A stretch of DNA of 64,000 nucleotides from a virus (IMGVR_UViG_3300028534_000026:2128-66127); one strand, 5' to 3'. Positions 5,920-61,325 are shown, counted from the first letter of the stretch. The notes: generated from the sequence alone by a model not told the origin. A program made the numbers and translations.

Positions 5920-6142
5920 TATGTCTCCTCCCTGATAAGGTTACCATAGGGGTCAACCAGGTATTTATTTCCGTCAGTGTCAAGTATCCCGTGGCTGTAC
6001 CCCTTTTTGGTCAACCTCTTTGACATGACTACAGCGGCCCTCTCTGTTCTGTGGCATACATACCCCTTCCCACCATAATAGGAAGCAAGAACAGTAGCGT
6101 CCCCCTATGAATATCTGTAAACCTTATAAAGTCATCAAACAT
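5919..6142 (-). pseudogene. 74-aa gene broken by a 1-nt deletion in a G5 run
   Basis: Strong AAGGAGG RBS + ATG at 6142; a 60-codon open frame from 6101 ends in a TAATG overlap at 5919; span 224 nt (3n-1). Confidence 0.6.
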
Positions 6143-6154
6143 TCTTCTTCCTCC

Positions 6155-6532
6155 TTAGTATACTGCCGGTGTAGTTTCCCGGACTTTCTGCAATCTGCGT
6201 CTGATCTCATCTACTCCATCCAACTCAGCAGCAGAAATGAAGTCTGATTCATCAGTATCCAAAACCTCTATGTCCAAATCAGGGATATCAGAGAATACAG
6301 ACTGAACAATACCACCCTCCACATGGATAACTACTTTCTTTTCATACCCGAGCAATTCCAGTATCAAGCCAGTTAGAACTTTGATGGCGTGGTCGTCATC
6401 ACCAGAGTTAACTTCACCACAATAAATGTCCCACATAGGGCAATCCTGACAATCAGTTACAGTGCCGCAGTCAGCTGGGTTCTTGTTAATTACCTTTATA
6501 ATATCCAACTTATCCAAAACTCTGGTTTTCAT
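6155..6532 (-). CDS. hypothetical protein, Cys-cluster N-terminus and acidic C-terminus
   Basis: CGTVTDCQDCP motif; AGGAG RBS. Confidence 0.7.
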   Translation of the reverse strand: MKTRVLDKLDIIKVINKNPADCGTVTDCQDCPMWDIYCGEVNSGDDDHAIKVLTGLILELLGYEKKVVIHVEGGIVQSVFSDIPDLDIEVLDTDESDFISAAELDGVDEIRRRLQKVRETTPAVY

Positions 6533-6592
6533 CTCCTATTCCTCCTTCTCGATTCCCAAGTTGGTTTCAGACTTCCAAGTAAATTCAGTATT

Positions 6593-6814
6593 CTACTCAT
6601 ATCCATTCTCCTTTTTCCATTTTTCACATGATTCAACAAGCACCGGGTCAGGGCCGTAAGCGTAAGAACCCGGTGTACAAACACCTGCTTCTTCACAAGA
6701 CAGCCCTGTCTCGGTGTGTTTGGACATGAAAGGGCAGTCTGCACACAGCACCCCATCACAGGCCCCATTATACTCCAAGATTGTGTTCACTGTTTTCAAA
6801 AATGTCTCTTTCAT
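6593..6814 (-). CDS. small Cys-rich protein
   Basis: GGAGG RBS before MKETFL; CDGVLCADCP motif resembles the adjacent gene. Confidence 0.65.
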   Translation of the reverse strand: MKETFLKTVNTILEYNGACDGVLCADCPFMSKHTETGLSCEEAGVCTPGSYAYGPDPVLVESCEKWKKENGYE

Positions 6815-6924
6815 GTTGGTTCCTCCTTGACTTTCAGAGTCTTTTAATTTATTCTTCAGGTTCCTTCGTTCCATTTTTGAAACAAGGATGTTACTTACCA
6901 TATACTGAAATGGAGTTACTGTCA

Positions 6925-7128
6925 ATGACTTTCAATGATTTCAAAAAACAATCCGGAAAAAGCTTCTCCAAAATTTCCGAAGAAACCGGCATCCCCAAGG
7001 CCACACTATGGCGCATCTCCCAGGGAAAAGAAATAAAACTCAAACATGCGTTTCTTCTTGTCGATTGGAGCGGTGGTGTGATTGACCTCTCAGACTTCCA
7101 AAAATCTGCAGAGGAGGCCACCGTATGA
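6925..7128 (+). CDS. Cro/XRE-like HTH regulator
   Basis: SFSKISEETGIPKATLWRISQG helix-turn-helix; GGAG RBS; stop overlaps the primase start. Confidence 0.8.
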   Translation: MTFNDFKKQSGKSFSKISEETGIPKATLWRISQGKEIKLKHAFLLVDWSGGVIDLSDFQKSAEEATV

Positions 7129-10544: not shown

Positions 10545-10939
10545 TTAATTACTGATAGGGTACCATTTTAGTGGGTACCCTGCTTCTTTCCAGTCATAAA
10601 GAAGATTGCCTACATCAACGGTATTGTATATCCAGGCCGCTGTTGTAGATTCCCCATCATTGTCATACCCCACCTTTTCCGTCACATACTTGTTCAAACT
10701 TTTTATGGGCACCTCTACTTCCACCTTGTGCCGATCCTTAAACAGACCGGACTTCCTGGCAAAATCCTCTGTGACATAGGCTTCAAAGTAGTGGTGCTTC
10801 AATTCTTTGGAGAGCCCGTGAACTACTCCCAGCGGAATGTTCGGACCGAGTTCAGCACGGATTCTGTCCACGGCCGCAAGACCGACTTGCTGATGACCGG
10901 AGCAGAAACATTGGTTACAAATTTTACTGTAAGTTCCAT
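10545..10939 (-). pseudogene. frameshifted paralog of 13387-13785
   Basis: AGGAGG RBS and TAATG overlap at ATG 10939; span 395 nt (3n-1); restored product is 131 aa versus 132 aa for the paralog. Confidence 0.6.
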
Positions 10940-11280
10940 TACTCTTCCTCCTTTATTTCAATAATGTCATATACTTCTGGCATCAAATCGTATGTCAATA
11001 CCTCCTCCATCCAGTATATGCGTTTGATTTTGGTCACAACTTGAATCGTGACCGGTATATCTTTCACCTCACCTGGCTCCAAGTCAGGCAGGTTAAACAT
11101 AAATTCTCCCAGAGCTGCGCAAAACCATGGAGAATCCGCAAATTTCGAATCATGGTCCAGTAAGTGCAGGCCGGTATATGCTGATTGTGCAACCCGGATA
11201 GTCGCCTTGTGCTTACACTGTTCCTGCGGGAATAAGTGGCCCCACGTCTGGTGCATGACCACTTCTTTATGACTCGCCAT
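10939..11280 (-). CDS. hypothetical protein
   Basis: 113-aa ORF coupled by TAATG overlaps. Confidence 0.7.
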   Translation of the reverse strand: MASHKEVVMHQTWGHLFPQEQCKHKATIRVAQSAYTGLHLLDHDSKFADSPWFCAALGEFMFNLPDLEPGEVKDIPVTIQVVTKIKRIYWMEEVLTYDLMPEVYDIIEIKEEE

Positions 11281-11561
11281 TACTTTTCCTCCTCGATTGT
11301 GAAGACAGGATTACGGAAATCTACCTTCGCTTTATTATAGTTTGCTCTTTTTAATGTGTCACGTGGCACAAAATATACAGCCCTGTACTTCATGTTATCT
11401 TTTACTACCGGCCCCCTCATGAATACGGCAGCCCCCTGTTTAGCAGCCCTGACCAACTCAACCTCACACTCCTTCAGCCTGGTGATAACACTGTCTGGAA
11501 TATGGCCCTTTTCTACTTTCGTACCCAAGTCAAGATCCCTTGGGTCTCCAAGAAAAGGCAC
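11280..11561 (-). CDS. hypothetical protein, possibly the 3' part of the upstream gene
   Basis: GTG directly follows the upstream TAA in the same frame; no clear RBS. Confidence 0.5.
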   Translation of the reverse strand: MPFLGDPRDLDLGTKVEKGHIPDSVITRLKECEVELVRAAKQGAAVFMRGPVVKDNMKYRAVYFVPRDTLKRANYNKAKVDFRNPVFTIEEEK

Positions 11562-11984
11562 TTATTTCAAAGGGGCATTTGAAGTAAGCCAAGATGGGTC
11601 CCACTCATACAACGGGTCAGGCTCCTTCCCACAGTTACCAAACATGCTGTGATAGAAATAGGGCATGTGTGGGTTCTGATTTGTCCATGGCTTATGTAGC
11701 GCATTACCAGGAAGATACCCCTGTTTGACAATAGTTTCGAGAAGCTCCCTCTTAGGCAGGACAACCTGCTTGGATTTTGGTTTCTTCAATAATTTCAATA
11801 CTTTATCGTATTCAGGCCGGTCATGTTCGACCACGACTGCTTCGAGCGGCCCTACTCCCCGGTAGGACCTGTACTCCTCCACCAACTTCAGGATCAAGTC
11901 AAGGTAGGCCAGCGAGTCTTCCGGTATCCCTGCCTCCTTGAGGTCTTTCCTCTTAATTATGATGTATCTATCCTCGCGTTTCAT
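11562..11984 (-). CDS. phage hypothetical protein
   Basis: REDRYIIIKRKDL...AVVVEHDRPEY pattern; GGGAGG RBS before MKRED. Confidence 0.7.
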   Translation of the reverse strand: MKREDRYIIIKRKDLKEAGIPEDSLAYLDLILKLVEEYRSYRGVGPLEAVVVEHDRPEYDKVLKLLKKPKSKQVVLPKRELLETIVKQGYLPGNALHKPWTNQNPHMPYFYHSMFGNCGKEPDPLYEWDPSWLTSNAPLK

Positions 11985-12570
11985 TTTTGGATTCCTCCCA
12001 TCTTTTTTTAAGCCAGTCACGAACCTTGGCTTTACCGACTCTATCCTGATAAGGCTCTACTCCTCCCAACCACTTAAACACACTCTCTTTATCAGAATGA
12101 TCAAACTCGAAATAAAACTCCCGCACATCCCCGCGAAAGTTTGGGACGGCGTTAGCCCCTTTGAAATATATTATCGCGTCTTCGAGGGTTAACTTTTCTC
12201 CTCTCTCCTCATATAATTCATTAAAGTATAGAGACGCCTCATTAAATACTTTGTCGACTATGCCGGTGGCATAGTCCTGAAATTCTGCCGTTATACCTAT
12301 CTCGACAATCCTCAACAGGTAATAAATCCGTGGGTAATGGCACCACTCTCCGTTTGGCCTGAGATATTGATGGTCTGTACTACCACCAGTACCTAAAACG
12401 TCGATTAAAGCGTCAGCTAAAAACGATTTGAACTCCCTATATTCTTCCCCAGCCAGTACGTCAAACACCTGCTTCAGACGTCTATACATATTCTTACACT
12501 TATAAACCCAGGGGTGACTGTCCCAATAAACGTTATTGTAGGTTTTGTCATATCTTGTTACACCGGCCAT
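11968..12570 (-). CDS. hypothetical protein (200 aa)
   Basis: Long ORF with GAGGAGG RBS. Confidence 0.75.
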   Translation of the reverse strand: MAGVTRYDKTYNNVYWDSHPWVYKCKNMYRRLKQVFDVLAGEEYREFKSFLADALIDVLGTGGSTDHQYLRPNGEWCHYPRIYYLLRIVEIGITAEFQDYATGIVDKVFNEASLYFNELYEERGEKLTLEDAIIYFKGANAVPNFRGDVREFYFEFDHSDKESVFKWLGGVEPYQDRVGKAKVRDWLKKRWEESKNETRG

Positions 12571-26814: not shown

Positions 26815-26844
26815 ACCCCGGCCAGTTTACTGGCCGGGGTTTTT
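26815..26844 (+). terminator. intrinsic terminator after capsid gene
   Basis: ACCCCGGCCAG/CTGGCCGGGGT 11-bp stem plus T run. Confidence 0.85.
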
Positions 26845-28506
26845 CCATACCCACTTTGTTTTGCCACAATCCCATATACGAAGGTAACCATTCCGTAAGG
26901 CGTTATCGTGTTCTGTTTCCTCGGGTGAGAAATCAAATCCAGGCAGTTTTTTCATTCTTGATTTGGTAAGCATGTTTTTAGGGACCACCAGTTCAGATTT
27001 CATGTACTTATAATCCGGTCGTAGGTATTTATCTTTGGTGAACCCAAGATTTCTATACATTTCCCCTGTAAACCACCTGTTATCGGAGTAGCTGGTTATC
27101 GTCTTTGGTTGGTACTTTCTTATAAAAGAAGCAAACAGCTTTCCTGCCCCACCTATTACAGCTGTTTTTGTTGAGAACCTTCTGAGCTCCCACACACCTT
27201 CCTCTTTTCTGAGCCCGCGATGCCCTACAGGTGAACTAAACAGCATACACCCAATGAGGTCATTGTTGTGGAAAATGCCAAAACTCTTGCAGCCGGATAC
27301 CCAACCCTGCAAGTGGTTTTCTTCTAGTAGCTCTTTTGTCCCTATACATTCGATTTCTCTGCATTCGCAGTTTCTGGCATATACCCTGTTTTTGGTTACG
27401 CCCAATATATGCAGGAGGGTTTTCTTTACTACCTCCTGATCTTCATATTCGGCCACATGAATGAGTCTGATGCTGTGGGAAGCACAGAGTTTTTGCTTTT
27501 CTATTAGGTGGTTTTTATTTTTGAATCTCTCAGAGTGCCAGAAGTTGCCGTTGAACTCTATTGCCATGTTCTTGTCTGGGATAAGTATGTCTAGCTCATG
27601 TCTTCCTATTACTCCCCTCACATTCCTTTTGATGTCTATGTGTCTGGATAAGAAGTCAGCTAGCTCTTCTTCTTTTGAGGATTTACCACCATACCTACAT
27701 TTTGGGCACCCTTCTCTGAGTAGGTGGGATTCTGGGGTCTGGCTGAATACGGTGTTGTGTTCAGTACAGATTATATCAACTCGTTTTCTGCAGTCCTCAT
27801 AATTTACCTTAGAGTAGTCATATTTGTCTCCATACTTGGCCTCGCAGTTTTTCACCCATTTATTGTACCCCGTGTCAGTATGGGTCAGCCGTGTAATTAG
27901 TTTAGCACATTCTTGGCACCCACTCCCTTTTAAATGCGTTTCCGGGGTTTGTTTGAATACTCCGTGCGTAGGGCACATTATGTCTACTTCTTCTCTGCTA
28001 GATTTATATCTAACAGCATTGTAGTCATAGGTCTCTCCATGGATGTTTTTGGCCTTCATAATGAAACCAGCAGTAGACATTGTCATTCTTATAGTATGGT
28101 CATCATCTGCGCATTTTCTACAGCCGCTGCCCTTTAAGTGTGTTCCAGCCCGTTGAAAAAAAGGCCCATGTGCAGGGCACACTATTTCTATCTTATTGTT
28201 GCTTCCAGTGTATTTCGAGAGACTGTAGTCATATTTATTGCCGTGTATTTCTTTAGCCTGCTTGATAAACTCCTCTGTGGTCTTTTTTAGTCTCTCGCTA
28301 TTTTCACCATTTTTGCAAGCCATACACCCATTCCCTGCTAGGTGGCCTGCTGCTCGTTGGCTGAACTCACCGTGAGTTGGGCAGATTATTCTGACTAGCC
28401 CGTTACTGCCGGTGTAGTTCGCCAGCGAGTAGTCATATTTGCCGCTGTGCTTTTCTGTAGACCTTTTGATAAACTCCTCCGTGGTCAACTTTCTTCCTCT
28501 AGCCAT
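26827..28506 (-). CDS. Hef-like homing endonuclease: Zn repeats, PD-(D/E)XK-like domain, C-terminal domain
   Basis: Four KYDYS...IxCPxHGxFxQ...HLxGxGCxxC repeats; ELDILIPDKNMAIEFNGNFWHS; EENHLQG...WELRRF...IWDCGKTKWVW; antisense to the operon. Confidence 0.8.
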   Translation of the reverse strand: MARGRKLTTEEFIKRSTEKHSGKYDYSLANYTGSNGLVRIICPTHGEFSQRAAGHLAGNGCMACKNGENSERLKKTTEEFIKQAKEIHGNKYDYSLSKYTGSNNKIEIVCPAHGPFFQRAGTHLKGSGCRKCADDDHTIRMTMSTAGFIMKAKNIHGETYDYNAVRYKSSREEVDIMCPTHGVFKQTPETHLKGSGCQECAKLITRLTHTDTGYNKWVKNCEAKYGDKYDYSKVNYEDCRKRVDIICTEHNTVFSQTPESHLLREGCPKCRYGGKSSKEEELADFLSRHIDIKRNVRGVIGRHELDILIPDKNMAIEFNGNFWHSERFKNKNHLIEKQKLCASHSIRLIHVAEYEDQEVVKKTLLHILGVTKNRVYARNCECREIECIGTKELLEENHLQGWVSGCKSFGIFHNNDLIGCMLFSSPVGHRGLRKEEGVWELRRFSTKTAVIGGAGKLFASFIRKYQPKTITSYSDNRWFTGEMYRNLGFTKDKYLRPDYKYMKSELVVPKNMLTKSRMKKLPGFDFSPEETEHDNALRNGYLRIWDCGKTKWVWKNPGQ

Positions 28507-38476: not shown

Positions 38477-39589
38477 ATGTCAAATGTCCCTTCATATACA
38501 GGTACAGTACCCAACAGGACCCAGGCTCAATCGGAGTTTAATACAAACGTCCAGGCGTTCCTGAGTTATATCGCTCTGCTGGCCCCGGAGATAAATAATG
38601 CGGTGGCTGAGATAGCTGCTCTTGAATCGCTGGAGTCTTATAGTTCTACGGTCACATACAATACCAATGACGCTTGTATCGGGTCGAATGGCGTCACATA
38701 CAGGTGTACAGCTGACGGGGTGACTGGGGATGACCCTGTTACGTCCAGTACCGGTAATTGGAAGAACATTACCCTGTACTTGGGTCTGCCTGATCAGGAT
38801 GGGATGATGTTGAAATCCACCACAGATGGTGTGTTGAGTTGGGCATTCGCCGGCCTTGGTGAGATGCCATCTGGTATTGAGATGGAAGGTTCTTTTGTTG
38901 GTGGGGATTACACCAACGGGACAGATGCTGTGAACGATATTGACATTCAGCCTTTTGTCTTCCCATCTCATGATAATACAGACATCATATCTTCTACGGC
39001 TGTCATTACGGCGGCCACTGATGGCTCAGGAGCAAATGGGATGTTGGGTGGGGCCAAACAGTCTGGAGACATTCTGGACATTTGGGCGTTGAAAGGTACC
39101 TCTGGAACCTGCGTGGGGTTTACCAGGAACGGGTCTGAGACAATAGGAGGAGTGACCCTGCCGTCCGGGTACGCTGATGCGTATAAGTGGATCGGGACAA
39201 CCGGCCTATTGGATGTTACAGATCTGCCAACAATAGTTTGTGTTGGGAACCAGTTCACTTATTTGTATGATCTGCAAGCTATTTTTTCTGGTGTATCCAT
39301 AGGCACTACTTATGAACTGAAGTCCCTGTCCGGAATCCTCCCTGATGATAGATACTATGCTTGTAGGTTTGGCCTGCAGGATAATGACTCAGCGCAGGTG
39401 GCTTTTTCTATAGATGGTGTCAATGATTATTACACGGTTGATACATCTACGGCAGGTATGACTTCATGGGGCTACAGGATGACCCAGCCTTCAGGTCATA
39501 TTCCGATACTGGATAACCAGATATACGTGAAGCAGAGTATAGCAAACGCAACAGCTCTGCTTATGCAGGCTGCACTCTTGAGGAGATAA
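38477..39589 (+). CDS. tail fibre / receptor-binding protein
   Basis: N-terminal anchor-like segment, carbohydrate-binding-like repeat (Y..ND...GSNG..Y.C), beta-rich body; no signal peptide. Confidence 0.65.
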   Translation: MSNVPSYTGTVPNRTQAQSEFNTNVQAFLSYIALLAPEINNAVAEIAALESLESYSSTVTYNTNDACIGSNGVTYRCTADGVTGDDPVTSSTGNWKNITLYLGLPDQDGMMLKSTTDGVLSWAFAGLGEMPSGIEMEGSFVGGDYTNGTDAVNDIDIQPFVFPSHDNTDIISSTAVITAATDGSGANGMLGGAKQSGDILDIWALKGTSGTCVGFTRNGSETIGGVTLPSGYADAYKWIGTTGLLDVTDLPTIVCVGNQFTYLYDLQAIFSGVSIGTTYELKSLSGILPDDRYYACRFGLQDNDSAQVAFSIDGVNDYYTVDTSTAGMTSWGYRMTQPSGHIPILDNQIYVKQSIANATALLMQAALLRR

Positions 39590-39591
39590 CT

Positions 39592-40191
39592 ATGAGATAT
39601 TGGAACGCTTACACTGAGACCGGAAAAGAGCTGGTAACCAGTATTGATATATCAGGAAAAGGGAAACCTGTTGACGGATATGATATGTACACTTTCCCAG
39701 CTTCTGAGTTTGTTAAAGGCAGGGAGCCATCCTTGTACCTGGTTGTGTCAGACAGGCTGCAGTTAAGGTCGGAGCCGGATATACTGGCTGACCCAACGAC
39801 AAAGAAGAGAGCCCTAGAAGCGAAGAAGCGTGATGTTGAAGCGTTGGTCGCTGCCAAGCAGCGTGAGTTGTATGAGTACAATGGTCATAAGTATTATCCG
39901 GATGAGCGGCTCATGAATGCTATCGCTACAGCCTACCCATTCAGGCCGGATGACCATACCTTGGATGTGAAGACGGCTGAGAAAATGACTGACGGGGTGA
40001 ACAATGTCTGGGTCACTTTGACCAAGGCGGAGTTGGCCGGGTTGTCCATGGGTTTCCTGGCTAGACAGTCGGATCTCTGGGACTATGGGTACAAAACTCT
40101 TAAAAACAAACTTAATGAACTGTGCCTCGATTCCACTAAAACCTATAAAGATATTCAGGAGTTTGATATTGAATCAGGATGGCCGAGTTAA
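39592..40191 (+). CDS. tail fibre assembly protein (DUF4376-like)
   Basis: Follows the fibre gene; FEY.G..Y..D-like segment and NNVWVTLT...L. Confidence 0.5.
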   Translation: MRYWNAYTETGKELVTSIDISGKGKPVDGYDMYTFPASEFVKGREPSLYLVVSDRLQLRSEPDILADPTTKKRALEAKKRDVEALVAAKQRELYEYNGHKYYPDERLMNAIATAYPFRPDDHTLDVKTAEKMTDGVNNVWVTLTKAELAGLSMGFLARQSDLWDYGYKTLKNKLNELCLDSTKTYKDIQEFDIESGWPS

Positions 40192-40657: not shown

Positions 40658-40975
40658 ATGCTCAAGGGTTTATCAGAGGTTATCAGTCAGGAGGCCCTCT
40701 TGGGGGTGCTCGCTGCTTCAGGTGGCATAGCCAGAATAGTTGTAGGTACCCACAAGATTCAAGATGTTTCCTGGATTGGTGAGGCCGCCAGAATTCTTTT
40801 TGTGGCTCTTCCCGTCGGGATAATGTCCGGCCTTTACATTATGACAAAATTCCAGTCTCCCGTACTCCCCCTCGCAGCTTCTTTTTCCGCTGGTGTAGTG
40901 AGCCTTAATGTGGTAAGGTTCCTATTATCAGCCGAGGGGCTCAAAATGCTGAGAAGCCTCATTGGAGGAAAGTGA
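40658..40975 (+). CDS. putative holin
   Basis: 105 aa, three hydrophobic segments, basic C-terminus. Confidence 0.6.
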   Translation: MLKGLSEVISQEALLGVLAASGGIARIVVGTHKIQDVSWIGEAARILFVALPVGIMSGLYIMTKFQSPVLPLAASFSAGVVSLNVVRFLLSAEGLKMLRSLIGGK

Positions 40976-41211
40976 TGCGGAAGATAAAACTGTTGAAGAG
41001 AGTAAGCCGGTGTAGGACAGTCATAACCCACTTAATTGTATCATGGCTGCTCACGAATATGGCCCTAGCTTTTGTTTTATATATGTCCTGTACTAAAGTG
41101 GAAGTTATAGCGTCCATGGCCTTGTTCACTCTGGGGCTCAAAGTAATGCAATATGATTTGTGGAAGATCAGGCATGACAAATACAAGAAACAACAGGTGG
41201 TTAAAGGGTGA
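40972..41211 (+). CDS. two-TM membrane protein
   Basis: Basic N-terminus, two hydrophobic segments; overlaps the holin stop. Confidence 0.55.
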   Translation: MMRKIKLLKRVSRCRTVITHLIVSWLLTNMALAFVLYMSCTKVEVIASMALFTLGLKVMQYDLWKIRHDKYKKQQVVKG

Positions 41212-41482
41212 CTATTGCACCTGGTTTCCGGATAAGGTTTTTGGTGTTGATATTGGTCTTGCTTGTTATGATCATGACGCCGCCTACGCTGCAGGCCATT
41301 ACCGGTTGAAATGGAGTGGGGACAAAAATCTTTTTAGAGACGTGTGGGAGATTGGGAACAGACAAGAAGGCTGGCGGGAGCCGGCCATAAAAGCGGTGGC
41401 CGGCCTCATGTTTGCTGCCGTAGCCACAGTTGGGAATTTATTTTGGTTAAGGAGCAGATATGGCACTGACAAAAGTAATTGA
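41174..41482 (+). CDS. phospholipase A2-like small protein
   Basis: DYCTWFPD...ACYDHDAAY...GDKNLF His-Asp motif; start uncertain. Confidence 0.5.
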   Translation: MTNTRNNRWLKGDYCTWFPDKVFGVDIGLACYDHDAAYAAGHYRLKWSGDKNLFRDVWEIGNRQEGWREPAIKAVAGLMFAAVATVGNLFWLRSRYGTDKSN

Positions 41483-41753
41483 TAATGTAGCAGTGGAAGT
41501 TGACTTGGCATCAGCTACAGAGATAACAGTAACCTCCCGTGCACTACTGGTGGCTGAGGGGTTTGAAGGTACAGACGAAATAGCAGTCGTCTACATTTTA
41601 GGGCCGTCAGGCAGTTACACCCCGTTACGTAATGAGTCTGGGACAGTTACACTTGTCCTGAAGCCTAATGTGGCTGAAGTCCCAGGGCCGGCTAAATACA
41701 AAATAACCAAGACGGCTACAGAGGGGGGTACTTATGTCGGTTACGAAGAGTAG
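41460..41753 (+). CDS. hypothetical beta-rich protein
   Basis: 97-aa ORF with AGGAG RBS. Confidence 0.65.
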   Translation: MALTKVIDNVAVEVDLASATEITVTSRALLVAEGFEGTDEIAVVYILGPSGSYTPLRNESGTVTLVLKPNVAEVPGPAKYKITKTATEGGTYVGYEE

Positions 41754-42153
41754 CTATGTAATCTATGTACCTATTACTGTATCCAATGACAGTGTTGTCC
41801 AGTGCCCTCTTGGTAGGTGCTTAGGCAGGCAGGCTGTCACGCTCGGGTCTGTTAATAACGCTGAACTTTCTACACTGATCACCAGCCGTAAGGCGTATCC
41901 TGGAGTAGCCGGTACCTTGTCTATTACATCAGGGTCGGGAGAAATATCCGTGAACGGTGGAGCGTGGACGTCAAGTAGCCTGTCTATAGCTAAGGGAGGC
42001 TATTTCCAAGTACGCACAACCAGCTCTGGGTCATATGACACAGCTGTAGCTATAGTTGTGGATATAGACACATATACTGATACGTTCACCGTTACCACCA
42101 AATCAGAGGAAGTGTCAGGGTTTCCATACACTTTCCCGTTTACACTCGAATGA
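41734..42153 (+). CDS. putative virion protein
   Basis: Ser/Thr-rich Ig-like domain; ends GFPYTFPFTLE. Confidence 0.6.
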   Translation: MSVTKSSYVIYVPITVSNDSVVQCPLGRCLGRQAVTLGSVNNAELSTLITSRKAYPGVAGTLSITSGSGEISVNGGAWTSSSLSIAKGGYFQVRTTSSGSYDTAVAIVVDIDTYTDTFTVTTKSEEVSGFPYTFPFTLE

Positions 42154-42161
42154 GGGCCGCC

Positions 42162-43709
42162 ATGAAAAGATTGTCAATATTACTAGCTCTAACCCTGCTT
42201 CCTGTAGCCTCGTATGCTACAGATATAACCTATGCTGATAAAACTACTGGGTCACAATTCACATCTACCGATGCGAATGAGATAAAATCTGCTGTGAACA
42301 GTAAAGTTGACAAGACACAGGTACTGACTAACGTTCCATCAGGTGCGGTGTTCACTGATGACCAGACGGCCAGTGAGATTTCATTCACTCCGAATGGGTC
42401 AATTGAAGCAACAGACGTACAATCAGCAATCCAAGAGGTTCGGGATGAGGCTGGTTCCGGATCAATTGTTTATCCAGGGGCCGGAATACCGAACTCAACA
42501 GGCACAGCCTGGGGAACGAGCTACTCTTTAACCACACTGGCTGCTGCTCTGGACGACGAAGGTTGGGTGTTCACCGGCAGCGTTGACATGACAGGTGCTT
42601 CCTCGGTATCACTCGGGCCGATCAAATTTGCGGATTCTGATGGATCTCCATCAACTGTAGGCGAATTTAGATATGATAATAACGTCACTGGATTTGCTGG
42701 AGGGTCGCTTGAATATAATAACGGCACCGTTGTTAAAAATGTAGTTGATTACGACAAAGATTCTCCACCTACTACAACGGGACAAGTTCCAACTTATGAT
42801 GCGACAAATCAAAAAATGGTGTGGAATATTCCGTCTGGAGGAACATCACCGACGATACAAGCAGATGACCCCGATTCGTCAAGTCCAGTAGGGTTTTATG
42901 GAGCAACTACATCTGGTCATTTTTTCTATAAATCATCACTTGGATTGTTCGATTTTGCTTCTGGCACTTATACTTTAGATCCTCCACCTACATATACACT
43001 TAATTTATCCATTACTGGAGGAGGAACAGTTACTATTGACTCAACTGGATACACATCATCTGGATCACCTCACGCTATCACAGGGCAGTCAGGAACAGTT
43101 AATATGACCGCCGCCTACGGAACAGGGGAGGATACTATTACATGGTCTGGTGATACTGTATCAGGCACTTATCCTGATTACACGATAGACATGGGATCTG
43201 CAGATAAAACAATTACAGCAGCTTTTAGTGAGGCTGCTTTTTGTTCCACCCAAAGTGTGATAACTGAACAGACCAGTGAAGGAAGTTGGGGTAACAATAT
43301 TTCAGATCAAGATGCAGAGGGGCAAGGAGTTGTATTTGCTTCTGATGCAAGTATTTATTCGATTATCGTTAAAACACACACAAAGTATGGGACTTCACCA
43401 GCAAAAATCAGATTTGGTACATCAGCCGATTTATCATCTAGTTACCTGGCTGAGTCCGCTCAGGTCGATATCGATACCGATGCAACCGAATACGAGTTTG
43501 TTTTTCCGACGCCGATATCTGTAACATCTGGAACTCAATATTACTGGGTAATATCTAACTTACAAGCAACTTATTATTTTAGTTTAGAGCGATCTGACAC
43601 TGATTCAGTACCCACGCAAAGCCGATGGTACGGCAGCAATCAAATATTTAATGCGTCAGCGAGTAATACAACTGATGATTATTTCTATAGGATTAAAAAA
43701 TGCGACTAA
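42162..43709 (+). CDS. tail-fibre-like protein with Sec signal peptide
   Basis: MKRLSILLALTLLPVASYA then TDITYADK...DANEIKSAVN and ATDVQSAIQEV fibre-type motifs; surface-protein repeat-like domain (TYTLNLSITGGGTVT...TITAAFS). Confidence 0.7.
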   Translation: MKRLSILLALTLLPVASYATDITYADKTTGSQFTSTDANEIKSAVNSKVDKTQVLTNVPSGAVFTDDQTASEISFTPNGSIEATDVQSAIQEVRDEAGSGSIVYPGAGIPNSTGTAWGTSYSLTTLAAALDDEGWVFTGSVDMTGASSVSLGPIKFADSDGSPSTVGEFRYDNNVTGFAGGSLEYNNGTVVKNVVDYDKDSPPTTTGQVPTYDATNQKMVWNIPSGGTSPTIQADDPDSSSPVGFYGATTSGHFFYKSSLGLFDFASGTYTLDPPPTYTLNLSITGGGTVTIDSTGYTSSGSPHAITGQSGTVNMTAAYGTGEDTITWSGDTVSGTYPDYTIDMGSADKTITAAFSEAAFCSTQSVITEQTSEGSWGNNISDQDAEGQGVVFASDASIYSIIVKTHTKYGTSPAKIRFGTSADLSSSYLAESAQVDIDTDATEYEFVFPTPISVTSGTQYYWVISNLQATYYFSLERSDTDSVPTQSRWYGSNQIFNASASNTTDDYFYRIKKCD

Positions 43710-45925
43710 AATTAACACGATTAATACAAATCATAGTAACAGTAGTTACTATCGTGATTGTTCCTTCGGCTATTTTTGCGCAGACTTATTACGTGCGAAC
43801 GGACGGAGGAACATCATCGGAATGTACTGGACTGGTTGATGCTGCTTATCCTGGCTCAGGAGCAGCGCAGTCCTGTGCGTGGAAAAGTCCAATGATAGCA
43901 CTTCCGCCATATGATCATTCTGGCAATCCAACTGGAACACCCTTAATATCAGGAGGTGATACACTTATAATCAAGAACGGTGATTATAAGATAGGTGCCC
44001 AAGATTGGGCAGTTAATGAGTTCAATTATTGCTCATATACAAGCGCATCAAGTTGTAATATGGCGCCGATACCAAAGGGAACTCCAACAAACCACACCAG
44101 AATACTAGGTGAAGGATATGAAGATTGTCAAACAATCGGAGTAGAACTTTATGCAACAAGAGGATTAGGTGTTTTATTAAGTCTTAATGATTCCGATTAT
44201 GTTGATGTGCAATGTCTAAGACTCACCGATCATATGGCGTGTGCATCATCAACGTCATATAGTGATGATAGCCGAGAATGTATAAATGTCGATGCTGATG
44301 GTGATTGGGGAAATAATGGCATTCAAGCAGCCGACATGTATAATTGGCAAACAACAACCGACGTAACTTTAAAAGATGTTGAGATACGAGGTCTCGGCGC
44401 CAACGGCATAAAAGCAAGCGCTTATAAAAATTGGACATTTGATGGTGTTAAAATAATAGCTAATCAAATGGCAGGTTTTGATGGAGAAGTAAGTCAAAAA
44501 ATCGTTGACTGGCCCAGGGATGATAATCCTGATGATCTTGGAACAATGACTTTCAAAGACACTGAACTAGCTTGGATGGGATGTATCGAAGGTTGGCCCG
44601 ATACAACTGTACATGACGGTTGTGACTCGAATTACGGCGACGCTTTAGGAACTTTCATCGTGGGAGGGAATTGGACGTTTGATAATGTATACGTCCACCA
44701 TGTTATGTCGGATGGAATTGATTTACTATACCATATATCAAGATATAGTAAATTGCCTTTTAAAAATGGATCACAAGAAATAACTCCGACTACAGGGTAT
44801 CTTGATCAAGTTGCAAATAATAATCAACAGTTAGTTGGAGGAACTTCCAACGCTGTTGGTACAGTAGTACAAGTAGTGGTAACGAGTGGTACATGGGCAG
44901 GAGGCGATGCTGCTGGATATATTTACATGACTAGCCAGTGGGGAGATTTTACTACGGACGAGACAATAACACGTCCTGAAGGCGGAAGCGCTGTTGTATC
45001 CGGTTCGGCTATAGACCTTGATCCAGGGACAATTACTGTTAAGAATTCCAGATTTGAAGCTGTCACCGGAAACTGTATGAAAATAAGGGGCAATAAAGTA
45101 ATATATAACAATGAAGTTATTCATAATTGCAGATATTTTTCTGTAGGAAGAGGAGGGGAGAATTTAATAGCGCCAACACCAAATAATATTTTGCTATGTA
45201 GAGCCGGTGCAAGCACTATATCAGCAGGATTAAAATACGGTAATTGGGTGGTTGTTATGAATAACAGTATAATAACGGAATCGTCTGGTGGTATATCAAT
45301 AGACGGAGTAGTCGACACTTGGGGAGGGCATGATAGAAACATGGGTACAGAAGAGGCCTGGTTATATAACAATATATTTTATGCTATGCAAGGTGATAAT
45401 CATGTTACCTATGCTGACAACGTGGCGGCAGAATATGAAAACAGCATCAACTATCTAAATAATATTGCTTATAATAACTGGGATAACACTTCATTTGTGG
45501 ACGGGAATAATAATGTTATCGCTGATCCAAAATTTGTTCATGTTAGTTTAGACGGAAATAGCGTGACAACTGACGATGTATTCGACATACATATTCTCGA
45601 TGATTCCCCTGCATTAGATGCTGGAACAAATATAGGTGTTGACGCTGGCGGACATTCTACTGTCCCGTCGGTTGATAGAGTTGGTGTAACGAGAACATCC
45701 CCCGTCACTATAGGTGCATACGAATTAGCAACGGGCGTTACTCCATCTTGTTCAAATACTGCGTCCTTGTGCACAAACCAAACAGACTGTGAGACAGCTA
45801 ATTGGTATTGGTATAATGATGTGTGTAACTCATCACCTCAGCAAACAGCAATGACAAAATCACAGTTCGGGACAGGAACACCAGCTTTATTCGGTTCCGG
45901 CACACCCGTTTTATTTGGTGAATAA
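43700..45925 (+). CDS. secreted parallel beta-helix (pectin-lyase-like) protein
   Basis: Signal-like N-terminus; TYYVRTDGG start; Asn-ladder repeats; many Cys; Cys-rich C-terminal repeat. Confidence 0.75.
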   Translation: MRLKLTRLIQIIVTVVTIVIVPSAIFAQTYYVRTDGGTSSECTGLVDAAYPGSGAAQSCAWKSPMIALPPYDHSGNPTGTPLISGGDTLIIKNGDYKIGAQDWAVNEFNYCSYTSASSCNMAPIPKGTPTNHTRILGEGYEDCQTIGVELYATRGLGVLLSLNDSDYVDVQCLRLTDHMACASSTSYSDDSRECINVDADGDWGNNGIQAADMYNWQTTTDVTLKDVEIRGLGANGIKASAYKNWTFDGVKIIANQMAGFDGEVSQKIVDWPRDDNPDDLGTMTFKDTELAWMGCIEGWPDTTVHDGCDSNYGDALGTFIVGGNWTFDNVYVHHVMSDGIDLLYHISRYSKLPFKNGSQEITPTTGYLDQVANNNQQLVGGTSNAVGTVVQVVVTSGTWAGGDAAGYIYMTSQWGDFTTDETITRPEGGSAVVSGSAIDLDPGTITVKNSRFEAVTGNCMKIRGNKVIYNNEVIHNCRYFSVGRGGENLIAPTPNNILLCRAGASTISAGLKYGNWVVVMNNSIITESSGGISIDGVVDTWGGHDRNMGTEEAWLYNNIFYAMQGDNHVTYADNVAAEYENSINYLNNIAYNNWDNTSFVDGNNNVIADPKFVHVSLDGNSVTTDDVFDIHILDDSPALDAGTNIGVDAGGHSTVPSVDRVGVTRTSPVTIGAYELATGVTPSCSNTASLCTNQTDCETANWYWYNDVCNSSPQQTAMTKSQFGTGTPALFGSGTPVLFGE

Positions 45926-45926
45926 T

Positions 45927-46343
45927 ATGCGCTGACCGTGGCAGAAGAAAGCAATACCCAATCCTGAACTTATCCCTATCACAAAGGCCGAAATTTTTGA
46001 ACTACTCAAGCCATGGGGAATAACCAGCTATGAGTTAGTTGACCGAGATTGGGTACTTGTTCCTGACGATTATTGCAGGGCTGTAGCTCTTGCCAGCAAG
46101 GTGAGAGATAAACGATACATACCAGAAAAAAGAGACTGTGAGAATTTTACCCACTCATTGATTGATGCTTTTAATACTGGTGATGGCTGGATTTTTGGTG
46201 GTTGTAGAGGTAGGACAAAATCAATTGGCCCACACGCATGGTGTTTTTATATCAATGAAAATAAGAATGTCAGGTTTGTGGAACCCCAAACATATGGGAG
46301 GATTGATGATATTATTTCAGTAATGTCATTTTACACGATATGA
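45927..46343 (+). pseudogene. Cys-His (DCENF...HAW...EPQT) protein with in-frame TGA at codon 3
   Basis: ATG CGC TGA CCG TGG is in frame with the 46101 ORF; MR(W)PWQKK... reads through 138 codons. Confidence 0.55.
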
Positions 46344-46616: not shown

Positions 46617-47143
46617 AATTTATCATCAAAGCAGAACAAGCAGCAGATGAAACTGTTTTCGGGTTAATCCTCAAAATGCTGGCTATGGGTGCGGATAAGG
46701 AATCTTGGGCCGGTGGTGTAACATACTTCATCACTAAGAACGAGGTGCTAGCTAAGCCTTACATCCCTGTCGCCATTGAAAAGAAGATTGATATACAGGA
46801 TTATCCGCTTTGGTTGAGAGTTCCTGATGCTGTGGTCGATGACTATGTTCCGGCTGACTGGCCTGATGCTACTGACCTTGACGAGAATGACGAGACTCAG
46901 AAGAAAAAGTTTTGGGAATATACTCCTGTCAAAAGAGGAATAAACGGAGAGTCCCTCGTCCGGATGAACCATTTCCCTGGTAGAGCAACAGCAGATAATA
47001 CTTTCAGTTCAACCTCGGTACCATTCTCACCGGAAGAAACCGACAGATACCTTACCTTGGTTTCCGGGGATGTATCAAAGGTCGTTTACGGGTCTATCTT
47101 AAACCAGTGGCTGGCGGATAACACAGCCCAAGAGTCACCATGA
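46613..47143 (+). CDS. hypothetical protein, probable start ATA at 46613
   Basis: AAGGAG-N5-ATA is in frame with the 46676 ORF and overlaps the upstream TAA. Confidence 0.6.
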   Translation: MKFIIKAEQAADETVFGLILKMLAMGADKESWAGGVTYFITKNEVLAKPYIPVAIEKKIDIQDYPLWLRVPDAVVDDYVPADWPDATDLDENDETQKKKFWEYTPVKRGINGESLVRMNHFPGRATADNTFSSTSVPFSPEETDRYLTLVSGDVSKVVYGSILNQWLADNTAQESP

Positions 47144-47535
47144 AAAATTTGATTGAATCCATATGGAGGAACGAGGGGTTCAGGCCAAGACCCTACCAGG
47201 ACCACCTCGGGGTGTGGACTTTTGGAGTTGGGTTTACTTATATTACAGAAGATGAGTCTCTTTATATCCTCCGGGGCCGCGTTAATCAGTTATATACCTG
47301 GCTCGATCCTGATATAAGCCCTCTACGAGAGGCTCAACAAGAGGTTCTTGTTGAAATGGCGTACCAATTAGGATATGATGGCCTCAAGAAGTTCGAGAAA
47401 ATGTGGTTGGCTATTCAGGCCGGCGACTGTGAAACCGCTGTCAAAGAAATGCTGGACAGCAAGTGGGCCTCACAGACGCCGAGCAGGGCCAACCGCCTGG
47501 CTATAAAATTCTATGATGGAGGGCGTGATGAATAA
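47140..47535 (+). CDS. endolysin, T4-like lysozyme (GH24)
   Basis: NEGFRPRPYQDHLGVWTFGVG; EMAYQLG; EMLDSKWASQTPSRA. Confidence 0.9.
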   Translation: MKNLIESIWRNEGFRPRPYQDHLGVWTFGVGFTYITEDESLYILRGRVNQLYTWLDPDISPLREAQQEVLVEMAYQLGYDGLKKFEKMWLAIQAGDCETAVKEMLDSKWASQTPSRANRLAIKFYDGGRDE

Positions 47536-48295
47536 GAAGCTTTTTATCCCCTTGTTACTGGCCCCTTTCCTACTGTCCGGGTGTTTCCTGACCAATGTAC
47601 AGACAGGAAAGCAGGTCAAAACCGAGACCAAAAAAGATGGTACAGTAATCAAGACCGAAACAGACAGGCCACTAGGGGACACCCAGTTTGACTACCAACA
47701 GTCTGTTCAGAAGGCTGTGGAAGAGGCGGCCAAATCAGATGTGGCTCGGGCCAAGGCCATCAGGGACGTAACTGTCAACACTATGAAGACAGCACAGACC
47801 AAAACAGAGGCTACTTTGGTTGGAGTGTTTGGTGCCCTGGCCCTGGAGAGAATGCAGTCTGCTATTCCGCAGACACTAAACTCCATGCAGGATCGTCCTC
47901 TCACGGCATCAGAAGCCGGGATAGAATATTTGAAACAGATAGCCAACTTCGCGTGGACTGTTCCTGTTACTGTTTCCGTAATGGAGGCCAACAAGACAGC
48001 CAGGACAGCGGCTGAAAATTCAGGCTCACATACCACTGTCACCGGGACCGGGAATTCGACTTATGTGAAGGACACCAAAACAATTTCCAATAACACCAAC
48101 TACATTAAGGGGGATAATAATAACCCGACAAATACAACCAGCCAGTCAGCGGACTGTCCGACTGGTAACTGTGGGTCCAGTGGGTTTACCCTTGACTCCT
48201 GTATATCGAATCCGCCTGGCGGGGTTATAAATGGTATTCCGTACTGGACTGCTGCCGGGTGCTCTTGTGAATCTCATGCCGCCGGGAGGTGCTAA
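47528..48295 (+). CDS. lipoprotein next to endolysin (spanin-like or envelope protein)
   Basis: Lipobox LLSGC; helical middle; Cys-rich C-terminus. Confidence 0.65.
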   Translation: MNKKLFIPLLLAPFLLSGCFLTNVQTGKQVKTETKKDGTVIKTETDRPLGDTQFDYQQSVQKAVEEAAKSDVARAKAIRDVTVNTMKTAQTKTEATLVGVFGALALERMQSAIPQTLNSMQDRPLTASEAGIEYLKQIANFAWTVPVTVSVMEANKTARTAAENSGSHTTVTGTGNSTYVKDTKTISNNTNYIKGDNNNPTNTTSQSADCPTGNCGSSGFTLDSCISNPPGGVINGIPYWTAAGCSCESHAAGRC

Positions 48296-60230: not shown

Positions 60231-60898
60231 CCCGTTTTCCTCATGTAATAATTGACAGTGGCCCTCATATCGATATCAAGATCCTGTTTTGAGAGCCAGC
60301 CCAGGTAACTTTTCGGTACGTCCTTCATCCTCTCCCCCTTGTGCTTGCCCCACGGCATCAGCTGTAGCACCAGAGGCTCTTTTGCCCATGGGATGAGAGC
60401 CTCCACTGACATCTCAGCCCCTTGGCAAAGGTATTTCAACAGGAATGAGGTCTGAAGTACATCCATCCCAGCGCTATGGGATACCATGGCCGGCAGGTCA
60501 CAATAACAGAGCAGTGTAGCCAGCTTGTGATCAGGGGCGTCAGGGAGCAGCCTCCTTGACAACCTGAGTGTGCACAGCTCATCCACGATATTAACGTGGG
60601 GTTCCAGCAGGGGCCGGTCAAAAGCGGTATTATGAGCCGCCAAGATTATGGGGCCTTCCGGGAATCTGACCTCAGTTATCTTTGGAAACTTCCCAGATTT
60701 TATGTCCTCGTCCCTGATTCCGTGGACACCAGCGGCCGCGCAGTTGATTGGTTTTTCCGGATCTACAGTGTGGACAGTGGGAACCCCTACTGCCATACCT
60801 CTGTAATTTATCTCAACCCATGACACCTCTACAATGGCCTTATCGTCCTCCAGGCCAGTCGTTTCGGTATCCATCACGAATATTCTTGGTTTATTCAT
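60227..60898 (-). CDS. DnaQ/ExoX-like 3'-5' exonuclease
   Basis: MDTETTG, AAHNTAFD, CTLRL, SHSAGMD; C-terminal MPWGKHKG. Confidence 0.88.
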   Translation of the reverse strand: MNKPRIFVMDTETTGLEDDKAIVEVSWVEINYRGMAVGVPTVHTVDPEKPINCAAAGVHGIRDEDIKSGKFPKITEVRFPEGPIILAAHNTAFDRPLLEPHVNIVDELCTLRLSRRLLPDAPDHKLATLLCYCDLPAMVSHSAGMDVLQTSFLLKYLCQGAEMSVEALIPWAKEPLVLQLMPWGKHKGERMKDVPKSYLGWLSKQDLDIDMRATVNYYMRKTG

Positions 60899-61308
60899 TT
60901 TGTAACCCCCCAATTACTTAAGGCAATATCATGAATAATGGCCTTTGGTTTAAAAATCACCTTATAATGGTATACACTGGCTACTGCAGGATCTAACTGT
61001 TCTACAAAATAGGATACATTGTCAGACAGCCCCAAGAAATGCTTTTTGTACACATCTTCCCCGGTTTTACACGTCACTTCAAGCTGGCCTCCCTGATCAG
61101 AAATAGAACACAACCCCTCTATTGAAAGAAGGTATGTATCCGTAATCCCGTTAAAGAATACTACCCTCCTGTTGATCTGAAACATGTCAGCTGCCTTTGA
61201 CAGATTCTTCGAGGCAATATCAGAATCTGTACTGCACGAGGATAATACTACTAGGCACAGACCAGTGAACAATAAAACTGCTTTACAAACTGATTGGTTG
61301 CTTATCAT
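60895..61308 (-). CDS. phage lipoprotein
   Basis: Lipobox VLSSC; SKNLSKAADMFQINRRVVFFNGIT pattern. Confidence 0.75.
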   Translation of the reverse strand: MISNQSVCKAVLLFTGLCLVVLSSCSTDSDIASKNLSKAADMFQINRRVVFFNGITDTYLLSIEGLCSISDQGGQLEVTCKTGEDVYKKHFLGLSDNVSYFVEQLDPAVASVYHYKVIFKPKAIIHDIALSNWGVTK

Positions 61309-61325
61309 AACTAAGCCCTCCATAC

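Follow-up and report, generated by a model that had tools for sequence, protein, structure and literature searches.

Tailed phages are, by textbook account, assembled wholly in the cytoplasm, and two large, probably late genes of an uncultured phage raise the question of why a fibre-like protein and a beta-helix protein should both begin with signal peptides, and where such proteins would act. The stretch of DNA analysed here, a 64-kb window, is part of a 69.6-kb uncultured virulent-type siphophage with its own genes for DNA polymerase, primase, helicase, ligase and SbcCD. No integrase was seen in the phage genome and, given this and the virulent-type replication set, lysogenic conversion was rejected as the main reading. 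The two ORFs are as given in the preliminary description:

42150/42162-43709, + strand: P0001, fibre-like protein, 519/515 aa
43700-45925, + strand: P0002, beta-helix protein, 741 aa

The P0001 and P0002 genes are co-directional with the tail and lysis genes, overlap their neighbours and are translationally coupled. The DNA is AT-richer, as had been claimed: GC is 0.40-0.42 at 43-47 kb versus 0.44-0.50 in the flanks, the deviant base composition expected of a moron. Promoter-like sites (24 versus 18.2+/-4.2 in shuffled sequence) and terminator-like sites (10 versus 6.0+/-2.8) were not clearly above expectation. A location between holin and endolysin had also been proposed. The endolysin has a firm family match, while the holin is putative, being called from TM segments and position. 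The neighbouring features are:

40658..40975, + strand: putative holin, 105 aa, three hydrophobic segments, near-identical in sister phages
40972..41211, + strand: small membrane protein, 79 aa, two TM segments, holin or antiholin candidate; identical protein on 11 contigs
41153..41482, + strand: 109-aa protein with a CYDHD motif and a C-terminal TM segment; gene kept by sister phages
41460..41753, + strand: conserved 97-aa protein without a signal peptide, upstream member of the module, in all three sister phages
41734..42153, + strand: 139-aa protein without a signal peptide, C-terminus GFPYTFPFTLE
45927..46343, + strand: conserved gene of 138 codons, right after the C-terminal tag of P0002, whose codon 3 is an in-frame TGA in this phage
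47140..47535, + strand: endolysin, GH24-type phage lysozyme (PF00959, E 1.3e-10), without a signal or SAR segment
47528..48295, + strand: lipoprotein, 255 aa, lipobox LLSGC, Cys-rich C-terminus, without a C-terminal TM segment

Family searches gave no match for either of the two putative holin ORFs or for the 97-aa protein, and only a weak match of the 109-aa protein to prokaryotic phospholipase A2 (PF09056, E 8e-4, 20.4 bits, below the cut-off of 29.4). The gene at 45927..46343 gave papain-fold matches, all sub-threshold; it is intact in phage L003 (MRWPWQKK...), and the TGA recurs in the 100% identical contig L021. A signal-less fibre-like gene is present at 38477-39589, as described, and the tape measure and Dit-like genes are directly followed by a separate variable fibre region, likewise signal-less.

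This neighbourhood suggests that the exported proteins might be lysis or escape accessories which break down a host outer layer (capsule, sheath or other polysaccharide) that traps progeny. The holins, PLA2-like protein, exported enzyme, endolysin and lipoprotein would then form one extended cassette acting from the periplasmic side. The position between putative holins and endolysin fits, the flanking PLA2-like membrane protein and large lipoprotein also look envelope-directed, no canonical two-component spanin was seen, and a lipoprotein closes the same kind of exported module in three other phages (L006, L007 and L018). A Sec signal alone, however, does not take a protein across the outer membrane, and the swapping of unrelated cargo among near-identical phages, described below, looks more like host-range variation than like a fixed lysis step. 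We consider a dedicated role in lysis unlikely.

Signal peptides were called with a heuristic of our own, which asks that the first ~35 residues contain a basic n-region, then about 8-16 hydrophobic residues free of charge (the h-region), and small residues at positions -3 and -1. The heuristic is untrained, and the cleavage sites are hence predicted ones; it passes 11 of the 152 window ORFs of at least 80 aa, several of the 11 being off-frame noise. Both proteins fit this scheme in all three respects, their h-regions being 13-16 uncharged residues long, in agreement with the preliminary description:

42162..42218, + strand: P0001 signal peptide MKRLSILLALTLLPVASYA, by the heuristic; an earlier in-frame ATG lies at 42150
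43700..43780, + strand: P0002 signal peptide MRLKLTRLIQIIVTVVTIVIVPSAIFA, 27 aa, by the heuristic, with a 10-nt overlap with the end of P0001

Cleavage is predicted after P0001 residue 23 (19 counted from MKRL), leaving TDITY at the mature N-terminus, and after P0002 residue 27, leaving QTYYV. A Shine-Dalgarno-like GAGGG stands 5 nt before the ATG at 42162 and an AGGA 8 nt before 43700, and MKRL is also the start of the P0001 orthologues P0123 and P0122. True starts lying downstream had been named as what would overturn the signal peptides. This is not the case: for P0001 no in-frame start codon occurs from the h-region to where the conserved mature N-terminus begins, and the only downstream candidates in P0002 are GTGs at codons 19 and 32, without a ribosome-binding site. 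P0123 and P0124, orthologues of P0001, have each retained a signal peptide, also where their sequences diverge. P0001 and P0002 thus each begin with what is, by its residues, a canonical Sec signal peptide with a predicted cleavage site. Predicted Sec export of both is well supported by comparative evidence: P0002 shares its junction and Cys residues with cellular proteins, cleavage of P0001 would expose the N-terminus that homologues have at Met1, and all three proteins found in the P0002 slot keep signals.

We also weighed whether P0001 and P0002 might be an ordinary cytoplasmic tail fibre and tailspike whose hydrophobic N-termini stem from wrongly called starts or are leaders without function. 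Both genes stand at the far end of the tail gene cluster, and fibre-like and beta-helix architectures fit receptor-binding proteins. Against this stand the lack of an alternative P0001 start, the retention of signals by every orthologue and by three unrelated cargo proteins although the signal sequences differ, the secreted nature of the P0002 family with its same junction, and the existence of a lipobox variant. This explanation appears very improbable.

P0001 comprises the signal peptide, a short conserved segment that we call the handle, a conserved core and a swappable tip:

42219..42323, + strand: handle of mature P0001, 35 residues, TDITYADKTTGSQFTSTDANEIKSAVNSKVDKTQV (alignment A8)
42456..43229, + strand: conserved core, residues 103-360, 70-88% identical in L003 and L005 and partly common to P0125-P0127
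43230..43709, + strand: swappable C-terminal tip, residues 361-519, with Cys365 and Cys518

The tip is 52% identical in L003 and is replaced by an unrelated domain in L005 and L013. AF2 on an 18-row alignment gave no usable model of P0001 (pLDDT 46), the beta-rich tip being the only part at pLDDT about 70-84. P0001 has no Pfam or PHROG family, no PDB sequence relatives and no full-length relatives in IMG/VR, and tblastn against phages returned only a 42-residue motif. Of the "fibre-type motifs" ascribed to it, what holds is a set of short motifs common to other uncultured-phage proteins; no curated fibre family matched. Two further ideas about P0001 were dropped. The tip matches no ORF of the window or the sister phages, contrary to the notion of a receptor decoy in which it would be an exported copy of a receptor-binding tip, and Pfam gave nothing at E up to 1 for residues 282-361, which by eye resemble an InlB B-repeat. 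In layout, and by layout only, P0001 matches the mosaic adhesive trimer (MAT) fibres of Bdellovibrio bacteriovorus, cell-owned, phage-tail-fibre-like proteins that work outside the cytoplasm and have a signal peptide, a conserved N-terminal domain and exchangeable tips (Caulton et al. 2024, PMC10769870). The conserved domain is about 130 aa in MATs and 35 aa in P0001, and P0001 is phage-encoded and would be late-expressed.

P0002 was described as a beta-helix protein with many Cys, and this was borne out, mature P0002 having 17 Cys and the following parts:

43781..45739, + strand: right-handed beta-helix body, AF2 pTM 0.80
44732-45028, + strand: low-confidence insert, residues 345-443
45581-45727, + strand: choice-of-anchor Q domain, residues 628-676 (NF041518, 26.8 bits versus a cut-off of 25)
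45749..45826, + strand: Cys-rich mini-module CSNTASLCTNQTDCETANWYWYNDVC

We found 218 homologues, with E down to 5e-77, on cellular contigs of up to 516 kb, where they are named beta-helix or choice-of-anchor Q proteins; 80 of 119 pass the signal-peptide heuristic. Nearly all of the first 37 homologues listed have, as P0002 does, a signal peptide and then (A)TYYVRTDGGxxxQCTG, and the junction A/xTYYVRTDGG is common to P0002 and about 100 cellular homologues. Ten Cys positions are invariant across 120 sequences of the family. The closest comparison is with secreted beta-helix/choice-of-anchor Q proteins (PF13229/NF041518), such as those of Omnitrophica and Lysobacter MAGs, which are 35-41% identical over the N-terminal 43-50%. 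P0002 residues 28 to about 712 match these proteins, sharing the junction, the 10 invariant Cys, the choice-of-anchor Q domain and YYWYNxxC. Since the YYWYNxxC mini-module also occurs in the tails of Omnitrophica homologues, it belongs to the captured body. P0002 differs in its place in the late operon of a virulent-type phage, in the 100-residue insert, and in ending with a phage-lineage tag where cellular members have other tails or anchors. By these sequence relationships P0002 is a captured bacterial secreted beta-helix protein.

The fold says less about function. The P0002 model gave Z 20-25 to many solved beta-helices, including Z 23-25 to AlgE epimerases, RbmB and Pel9A and about 22.6 to the Sf6 tailspike (VIA-align). 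The best matches, to PL6, PL9, AlgE epimerases, RbmB, GH136 and tailspikes, were tied, and such matches are generic for beta-helices, adhesins and tailspikes among them. A profile search gave no PDB sequence match, Pfam no match at E up to 1, although many homologues carry PF13229, and PHROG no family. The only tblastn match among phages was a 26% beta-helix match to Tunturi gp17, whose label "virion structural protein" is a prediction and not proteomics. The Sf6 and CBA120 tailspikes and the structural protein of Cellulophaga phage phi17:2 are of the same fold class, with a likely polysaccharide target; against tailspike/depolymerase beta-helices P0002 gave Z about 22-23 and rmsd 2.8-3.6 A over ~320 residues (BFVD E 8.5e-10). 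Tailspikes lack a signal peptide and have an N-terminal virion-binding domain, whereas P0002 has a signal peptide and a C-terminal tag and lacks an N-terminal adaptor.

In two sister phages the P0002 slot holds other signal-bearing proteins, P0140 and P0141. The three bodies (741, 566 and 464 aa) are unrelated, each with its own signal peptide, P0140 and P0141 also having no PDB sequence relatives, and share a single element:

45857..45925, + strand: C-terminal tag, 22 residues, KSQFGTGTPALFGSGTPVLFGE, plus stop codon; the only similarity of P0002, P0140 and P0141

The tag consensus is FGTGTxALFGSGTPxxFGE. Over the 22 codons each pair differs by 7-10 synonymous and 2-5 non-synonymous changes, a pattern that indicates purifying selection on the tag. 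The DNA directly downstream of the tag is conserved too, and part of the tag's conservation could come from its lying at a recombination boundary. The AF2 model of P0002 shows the tag as disordered. Scans of IMG/VR and GTDB genomes gave pattern matches and no relatives, a search of 5.8 billion clusters found only P0002 and P0140, and a profile search of 1.8 billion representatives returned only FG-repeat noise; a widespread host sorting signal was rejected on these results. Known C-terminal sorting signals have a signature motif with a TM segment and basic tail, or a CTD of ~80 aa, or a terminal aromatic residue. The tag, with 22 aa, no TM segment, no PEP or LPXTG motif and the ending FGE, did not resemble PEP-CTERM, T9SS CTD, LPXTG, GlyGly-CTERM or OMP beta-signals when compared by eye.

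Exported phage proteins as such are known, examples being λ Lom and Bor, T5 Llp, Cor, spanins and SAR endolysins. Signal-peptide genes are also found in Porphyromonas phages (Matrishin et al. 2023, PMC10367356). Known phage exported proteins near tail or lysis genes use host Sec or Lol and have an AT-richer, moron-like composition, as here. They are small proteins of exclusion, lysis or unknown function, whereas those here are 500-750 aa, fibre- or enzyme-like, and part of a swappable cassette with a common tag.

The handle, with consensus TDITYADK..DANEIK.AVNSK directly after the predicted P0001 cleavage site, has invariant residues T4, K8, E21, K23, V26 and N27 among the 15 sequences of alignment A8. 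All are from uncultured phages, and no cultured phage with a handle was found. A signal peptide precedes the handle in 10 sequences, a lipobox in one lineage (L018) and only Met1 in 4 of the aligned sequences (5 lineages across uncultured phages), so that cleavage of P0001 would recreate the N-terminus of the signal-less homologues. Cys counts do not cleanly separate handle proteins with and without signal peptides. In nine of the handle loci the upstream gene ends in FPYxLPFxL, and the C-terminus (G/N)FPYx(L/F)PFxL is the only conserved part of these nine otherwise divergent genes (alignment A7). In L003 a 794-aa LamG protein replaces the 139-aa upstream protein, and the handle of the next gene is also different. 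A complex prediction for the 139-aa FPYxFPF protein with the P0001 handle region (A7 plus A8) gave a score of 0.02 and a mark of 0.32 and is uninformative either way. In other phages, handle proteins have signal-bearing neighbours with Beta_helix, LamG, Calx-beta or CBM5/12 domains; a PL14 match in this group was sub-threshold (17 bits versus a cut-off of 27).

These features bear on the idea that P0001 and its tagged cargo are virion appendages folded in the periplasm, which would dock onto finished tails after the inner membrane is breached by the holin, at a stage when the outer membrane still encloses virions and periplasmic proteins alike. P0001 would be fixed by its handle to a tail protein, for which the 139-aa FPYxFPF protein is a candidate, and the enzyme would be fixed to P0001 by the tag, so that receptor binding and depolymerase activity would be combined in one branched complex. 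Signal-less handle proteins, with the handle at Met1, lie in structural clusters adjoining capsid or tail-tube genes (L009, L011 and L012), which suggests that the family may be virion-borne. The upstream motif accompanies the handle and is lost with it in L003; tips and cargo are exchanged on a conserved handle, core and tag, as in receptor-binding proteins; and the beta-helix relatives include phage tailspikes and the Cellulophaga phage protein. The timing is physically possible in λ-type lysis, where spanin-defective cells round up with the outer membrane intact. On the other side, a lipobox, as found in L018, would tether the protein to a membrane, the body of P0002 was taken over whole from a secreted protein of cells, and the phage already has a signal-less variable fibre region beside its Dit-like gene. 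We know of no precedent for periplasm-folded virion appendages in tailed phages, and none was found in the literature searched. We hold such appendages to be possible, though doubtful.

The reading we prefer, at roughly even chances, is that the genes specify a modular set of exported proteins, expressed late and directed at polysaccharide, whose folding takes place in the periplasm and whose action comes after lysis. P0001 and P0002 would be made late, taken through the host inner membrane by Sec and trimmed by signal peptidase I; folding would follow in the periplasm, where P0002 would form the disulfides its family needs. P0001 would be a modular fibre- or adhesin-like protein built of signal peptide, handle, core and swappable tip. 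The P0002 slot is a cassette into which this phage lineage has brought a variety of captured secreted proteins, all fused in frame to the 22-residue tag, which would let each dock on a conserved partner encoded by the phage. After the cell has been opened by holin, endolysin and the disruption of the outer membrane, the set would work outside the cytoplasm, binding and cutting host surface or matrix polysaccharide, with the result that progeny would be freed and the way cleared to new cells. It counts against this proposal that the stay in the periplasm would last only the final minutes of the lytic cycle, with no obvious benefit beyond folding. A free enzyme would need neither conserved tag nor handle, and both therefore hint at assembly onto something, possibly the virion. 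The lipoprotein-anchored L018 homologue and the cellular origin of P0002 favour a non-virion reading. A virion reading stays in play through the docking-like tag, which is conserved, and through the occurrence of signal-less handle homologues in structural modules.

Thus, of the interpretation first offered, export is upheld, and its alternatives of virion appendage and secreted enzyme or adhesin are not separable from sequence. It was also suggested that the module could be undescribed, and we found no description of it in the published literature searched. The occurrence of the handle behind a signal peptide, a lipobox or Met1, the three cargoes that differ except in the tag, and the intact captured protein P0002 make these ideas directly testable. 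It is conceivable, at less than even chances, that assembly takes place in two compartments, with exported P0001 and tag-plugged cargo snapping onto cytoplasm-built tails via the handle after the holin is triggered and before the outer membrane ruptures, an assembly route for which tailed phages offer no described example. In sum, a recurring set of this kind would point, if these readings are true, to virion parts having a second compartment for their assembly or, alternatively, to phages releasing a class of enzyme complexes that work outside the cell; the tag and handle may also be of use as small docking elements by which enzymes could be fixed to scaffolds derived from phages.

The virus record from which the window derives is 69,618 bp long, the window being its bases 2128-66127, and its completeness is estimated by CheckV at 86%. 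Genes in the window include those for a terminase, portal, protease, major head protein, Phage_tube_2 tail tube and 1314-aa tape measure, and the phage has its own replication set of DNA polymerase, primase, helicase, ligase and an SbcCD-like nuclease. Given these replication genes, and since no integrase was seen among the phage's genes, we take the phage to be a siphophage of virulent type. Its relatives in culture are very distant: the protein at the Dit position is about 30% identical to its counterparts in Salicola, Limnohabitans, Caulobacter and Vibrio siphophages. Within the head-to-tail structural operon, the opposite strand encodes a 559-aa HNH/homing endonuclease (window 26827-28506, minus strand; phrog_559, E 5e-124). 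The two genes under study are:

42150-43709: P0001, fibre-like protein with a signal peptide; likeliest start, ATG at 42162
43700-45925: P0002, adjoining downstream, beta-helix enzyme-like protein with a signal peptide

L021, a contig from a separate run (SRR8439170), matches the 3776-nt P0001-P0002 region and the following 775 nt at 100% identity, so the sequence of the pair is reproducible. The preliminary description placed both genes in AT-richer DNA, and GC does fall to 0.40-0.42 at 43-47 kb. It also proposed that both proteins carry Sec signal peptides, and these are predicted by our own heuristic, each with an n-h-c layout and an AXA-type site (…VASYA/TDITY in P0001, …SAIFA/QTYYV in P0002). 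The heuristic passes 11 of the 152 window ORFs of at least 80 aa, among them a 255-aa lipoprotein (47528-48295) and two early-region exported candidates. Two more exported candidates lie outside the late operon, at window 5087-5641 and 60895-61323, both on the minus strand; one is 184 aa long with a clean signal peptide (MKKMMMVIVMLLAASTAYG/L), and the other is a 142-aa lipoprotein matching PF25682 (Phage_VG64, E 1.4e-51). The ATG at 42162 is the likeliest P0001 start because a GAGGG precedes it by 5 nt and the orthologues begin MKRL. In P0001, no in-frame start codon separates the hydrophobic core from the conserved mature N-terminus; in P0002 the only ones in this interval are two GTGs, both without a ribosome-binding site.

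Comparison of P0001 with its orthologues P0123 and P0124, from the sister phages L005 and L003 respectively, divides the protein into four parts: signal peptide, N-terminal region, core and swapped tip. The core (residues 103-360) is conserved at 70-88% identity; L003 has a tip 52% identical to that of P0001, and L005 an unrelated one. The handle, as the first 35 residues of the mature protein are called here, has the form (T)DITYADKxxGxxFxAxDANEIKxAVNSKxD and recurs in uncultured phage contigs. In alignment A8, which holds 15 handle sequences, the handle is preceded by a signal peptide in ten, directly by Met1 in four (L008, L009, L010 and L016), and by a lipobox and short spacer in one (L018, …LSGC-AAQRSLERSG-TDITYSDK); a fifth Met1 form, of more divergent sequence, is that of L012. 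Because the ORF caller starts at the most upstream ATG, GTG or TTG, the Met1 forms hide no signal peptide behind a mis-called start. The predicted cleavage would thus restore an N-terminus that is native to signal-less relatives, which is the strongest in-silico argument for cleavage of P0001. L018 encodes two lipoproteins (5926-7227 and 10891-12117) with a common C-x3-R(S)LER(S/T)G spacer past the lipobox, one of which runs on into the TDITYSDK handle. Signal-bearing handle proteins usually precede further proteins with signal peptides; in L006, L007 and L018 a lipoprotein comparable to the 255-aa one comes next and ends the exported module. Domains in the signal-bearing neighbors are Beta_helix, LamG, Calx-beta and CBM5/12, with a sub-threshold PL14 match. 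The gene directly upstream of the handle protein ends (G/N)FPYx(L/F)PFxL in nine loci, the remainder of the upstream protein being unconserved.

P0002 itself has no Pfam or PHROG match; its residues 628-676 score above the NF041518 cut-off. A large protein collection yielded 218 homologues (best E 5e-77). Most are beta-helix (PF13229) or choice-of-anchor Q proteins encoded by MAGs of Omnitrophica, Lysobacter and others, where the cellular contigs reach 516 kb. In the homologues the signal peptide is followed by (A)TYYVRTDGGxxxQCTG, a junction that P0002 shares. Ten Cys are invariant in 120 aligned family sequences, and a YYWYNxxC mini-module ahead of the tail is common to P0002 and the Omnitrophica members. 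The AF2 model is a confident beta-helix (pTM 0.80) with a disordered insert (350-439) and tail (712-741), and its structural neighbors are tied at Z 20-25: AlgE epimerase/lyases, RbmB, Pel9A, PL6 lyases, GH136 and phage tailspikes. Among viral models, a structural protein of a Cellulophaga phage and uncultured-phage beta-helices match best. P0002 is, we conclude, a secreted bacterial protein of beta-helix fold that was captured by the phage, and it is probably polysaccharide-directed.

In the syntenic sister phages L003 (= L020) and L005 (= L022), where neighboring genes are near-identical to those of the window, the P0002 slot is filled by the unrelated proteins P0140 (566 aa) and P0141 (464 aa), each with its own, differing signal peptide. 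Likeness among the three is confined to the last 22 residues, K(S/A)(Q/N)FGTGT(P/S)ALFGSGTP(V/A)(L/I)FGE, here called the tag. Each pair differs in the 22 tag codons by 7-10 synonymous versus 2-5 non-synonymous changes, and from this synonymous excess the peptide is under purifying selection. The DNA directly 3' of the tag, which begins the next gene, is conserved as well, so the tag is the left edge of the backbone. We argue that the tag is needed, since it was kept through three independent in-frame joins. The tag was found nowhere else in IMG/VR, GTDB genomes, 5.8 billion protein clusters or 1.8 billion representatives, and a general host sorting signal is therefore rejected. To our knowledge, it matches no sorting signal. 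We read it as a putative docking peptide, by which these proteins would bind a conserved partner from the phage. In two other lineages, L006 (2781-4448) and L008 (9323-11194), the cargo-position proteins terminate in short G/T-rich mini-repeats arranged in tandem (…SLNGTGQSSLNGAGSLTIQY and …KFSTGTGKRTTGTGKQVNN, respectively); FGTGT…FGSGT-like in style, these may represent the same docking idea in lineage-specific form. Directly 3' of the tag, a conserved gene of 138 codons (window 45927-46343, plus strand) contains a TGA in frame at codon 3, also present in the independent contig L021 and replaced by TGG in L003; its product has papain-fold matches, all sub-threshold. The next small gene, orthologous to that for a 91-aa L003 protein, has a frameshift near 46447. 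Genes directly after that for the Dit-like protein are also swapped between sister phages (370 and 199 aa at window 38477-40191; 231, 278 and 136 aa at L005 6040-7981), so the lineage varies in two distinct regions, of which one is signal-less and the other exported.

The pair had been placed between a holin and an endolysin. The endolysin is borne out as a PF00959 lysozyme (47140-47535); for the holin, a 3-TM protein and then a 2-TM protein are present, and neither has a family match. Directly after these two putative holins is a 109-aa late protein (window 41153-41482, plus strand), kept in the sister phages, with a CYDHD motif and, at its C-terminus, a TM segment. This protein matches prokaryotic phospholipase A2 below threshold (PF09056, E 8e-4) and could be an outer- or inner-membrane disruptor in place of a spanin. 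The 255-aa lipoprotein (plus strand; lipobox LLSGC, Cys-rich C-terminus) sits at the expected spanin position, and neither a C-terminal TM segment nor an embedded o-spanin was found in it.

The sequence evidence supports export of P0001 and P0002 and an extracytoplasmic function that is modular and directed at sugars. Given the phage's virulent look and the late position of the genes, the proteins would be periplasmic only shortly before lysis. In the simplest view, the benefit of export would be that a secreted enzyme, once captured, could fold oxidatively, and after lysis the proteins would act on capsule, EPS or receptor polysaccharide. Handle and tag point to assembly into a complex. Such a complex might stay free or might dock onto virions, the latter a two-compartment assembly that we think rather unlikely, though signal-less handle proteins are located in structural clusters and the swapping pattern follows receptor-binding-protein logic. 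Handle and FPY motif are, moreover, lost jointly in L003, where a 794-aa LamG protein replaces the FPY-motif protein and the P0124 handle differs too. To judge by lambda-type lysis, docking between holin triggering and outer-membrane rupture is physically plausible. However, docking has no known precedent, a lipoprotein version of the handle protein exists, P0002 is of cellular origin, and the lineage has its separate signal-less variable fibre region after the Dit-like gene.

The pair P0001/P0002 is filed with exported proteins encoded by phages and with phage depolymerases. Among cellular proteins, the MAT fibres of Bdellovibrio come closest to P0001 in layout, with a signal peptide, conserved N-terminal domain and exchangeable tips (PMC10769870). 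For Porphyromonas phages, signal peptides are reported on genes for capsid, spanin and unknown proteins, and on none for tail parts (PMC10367356); further literature searches found nothing closer. New here are a single handle that alternates among signal peptide, lipobox and Met1, a cassette slot with a tag, and the location inside a siphophage lysis region.
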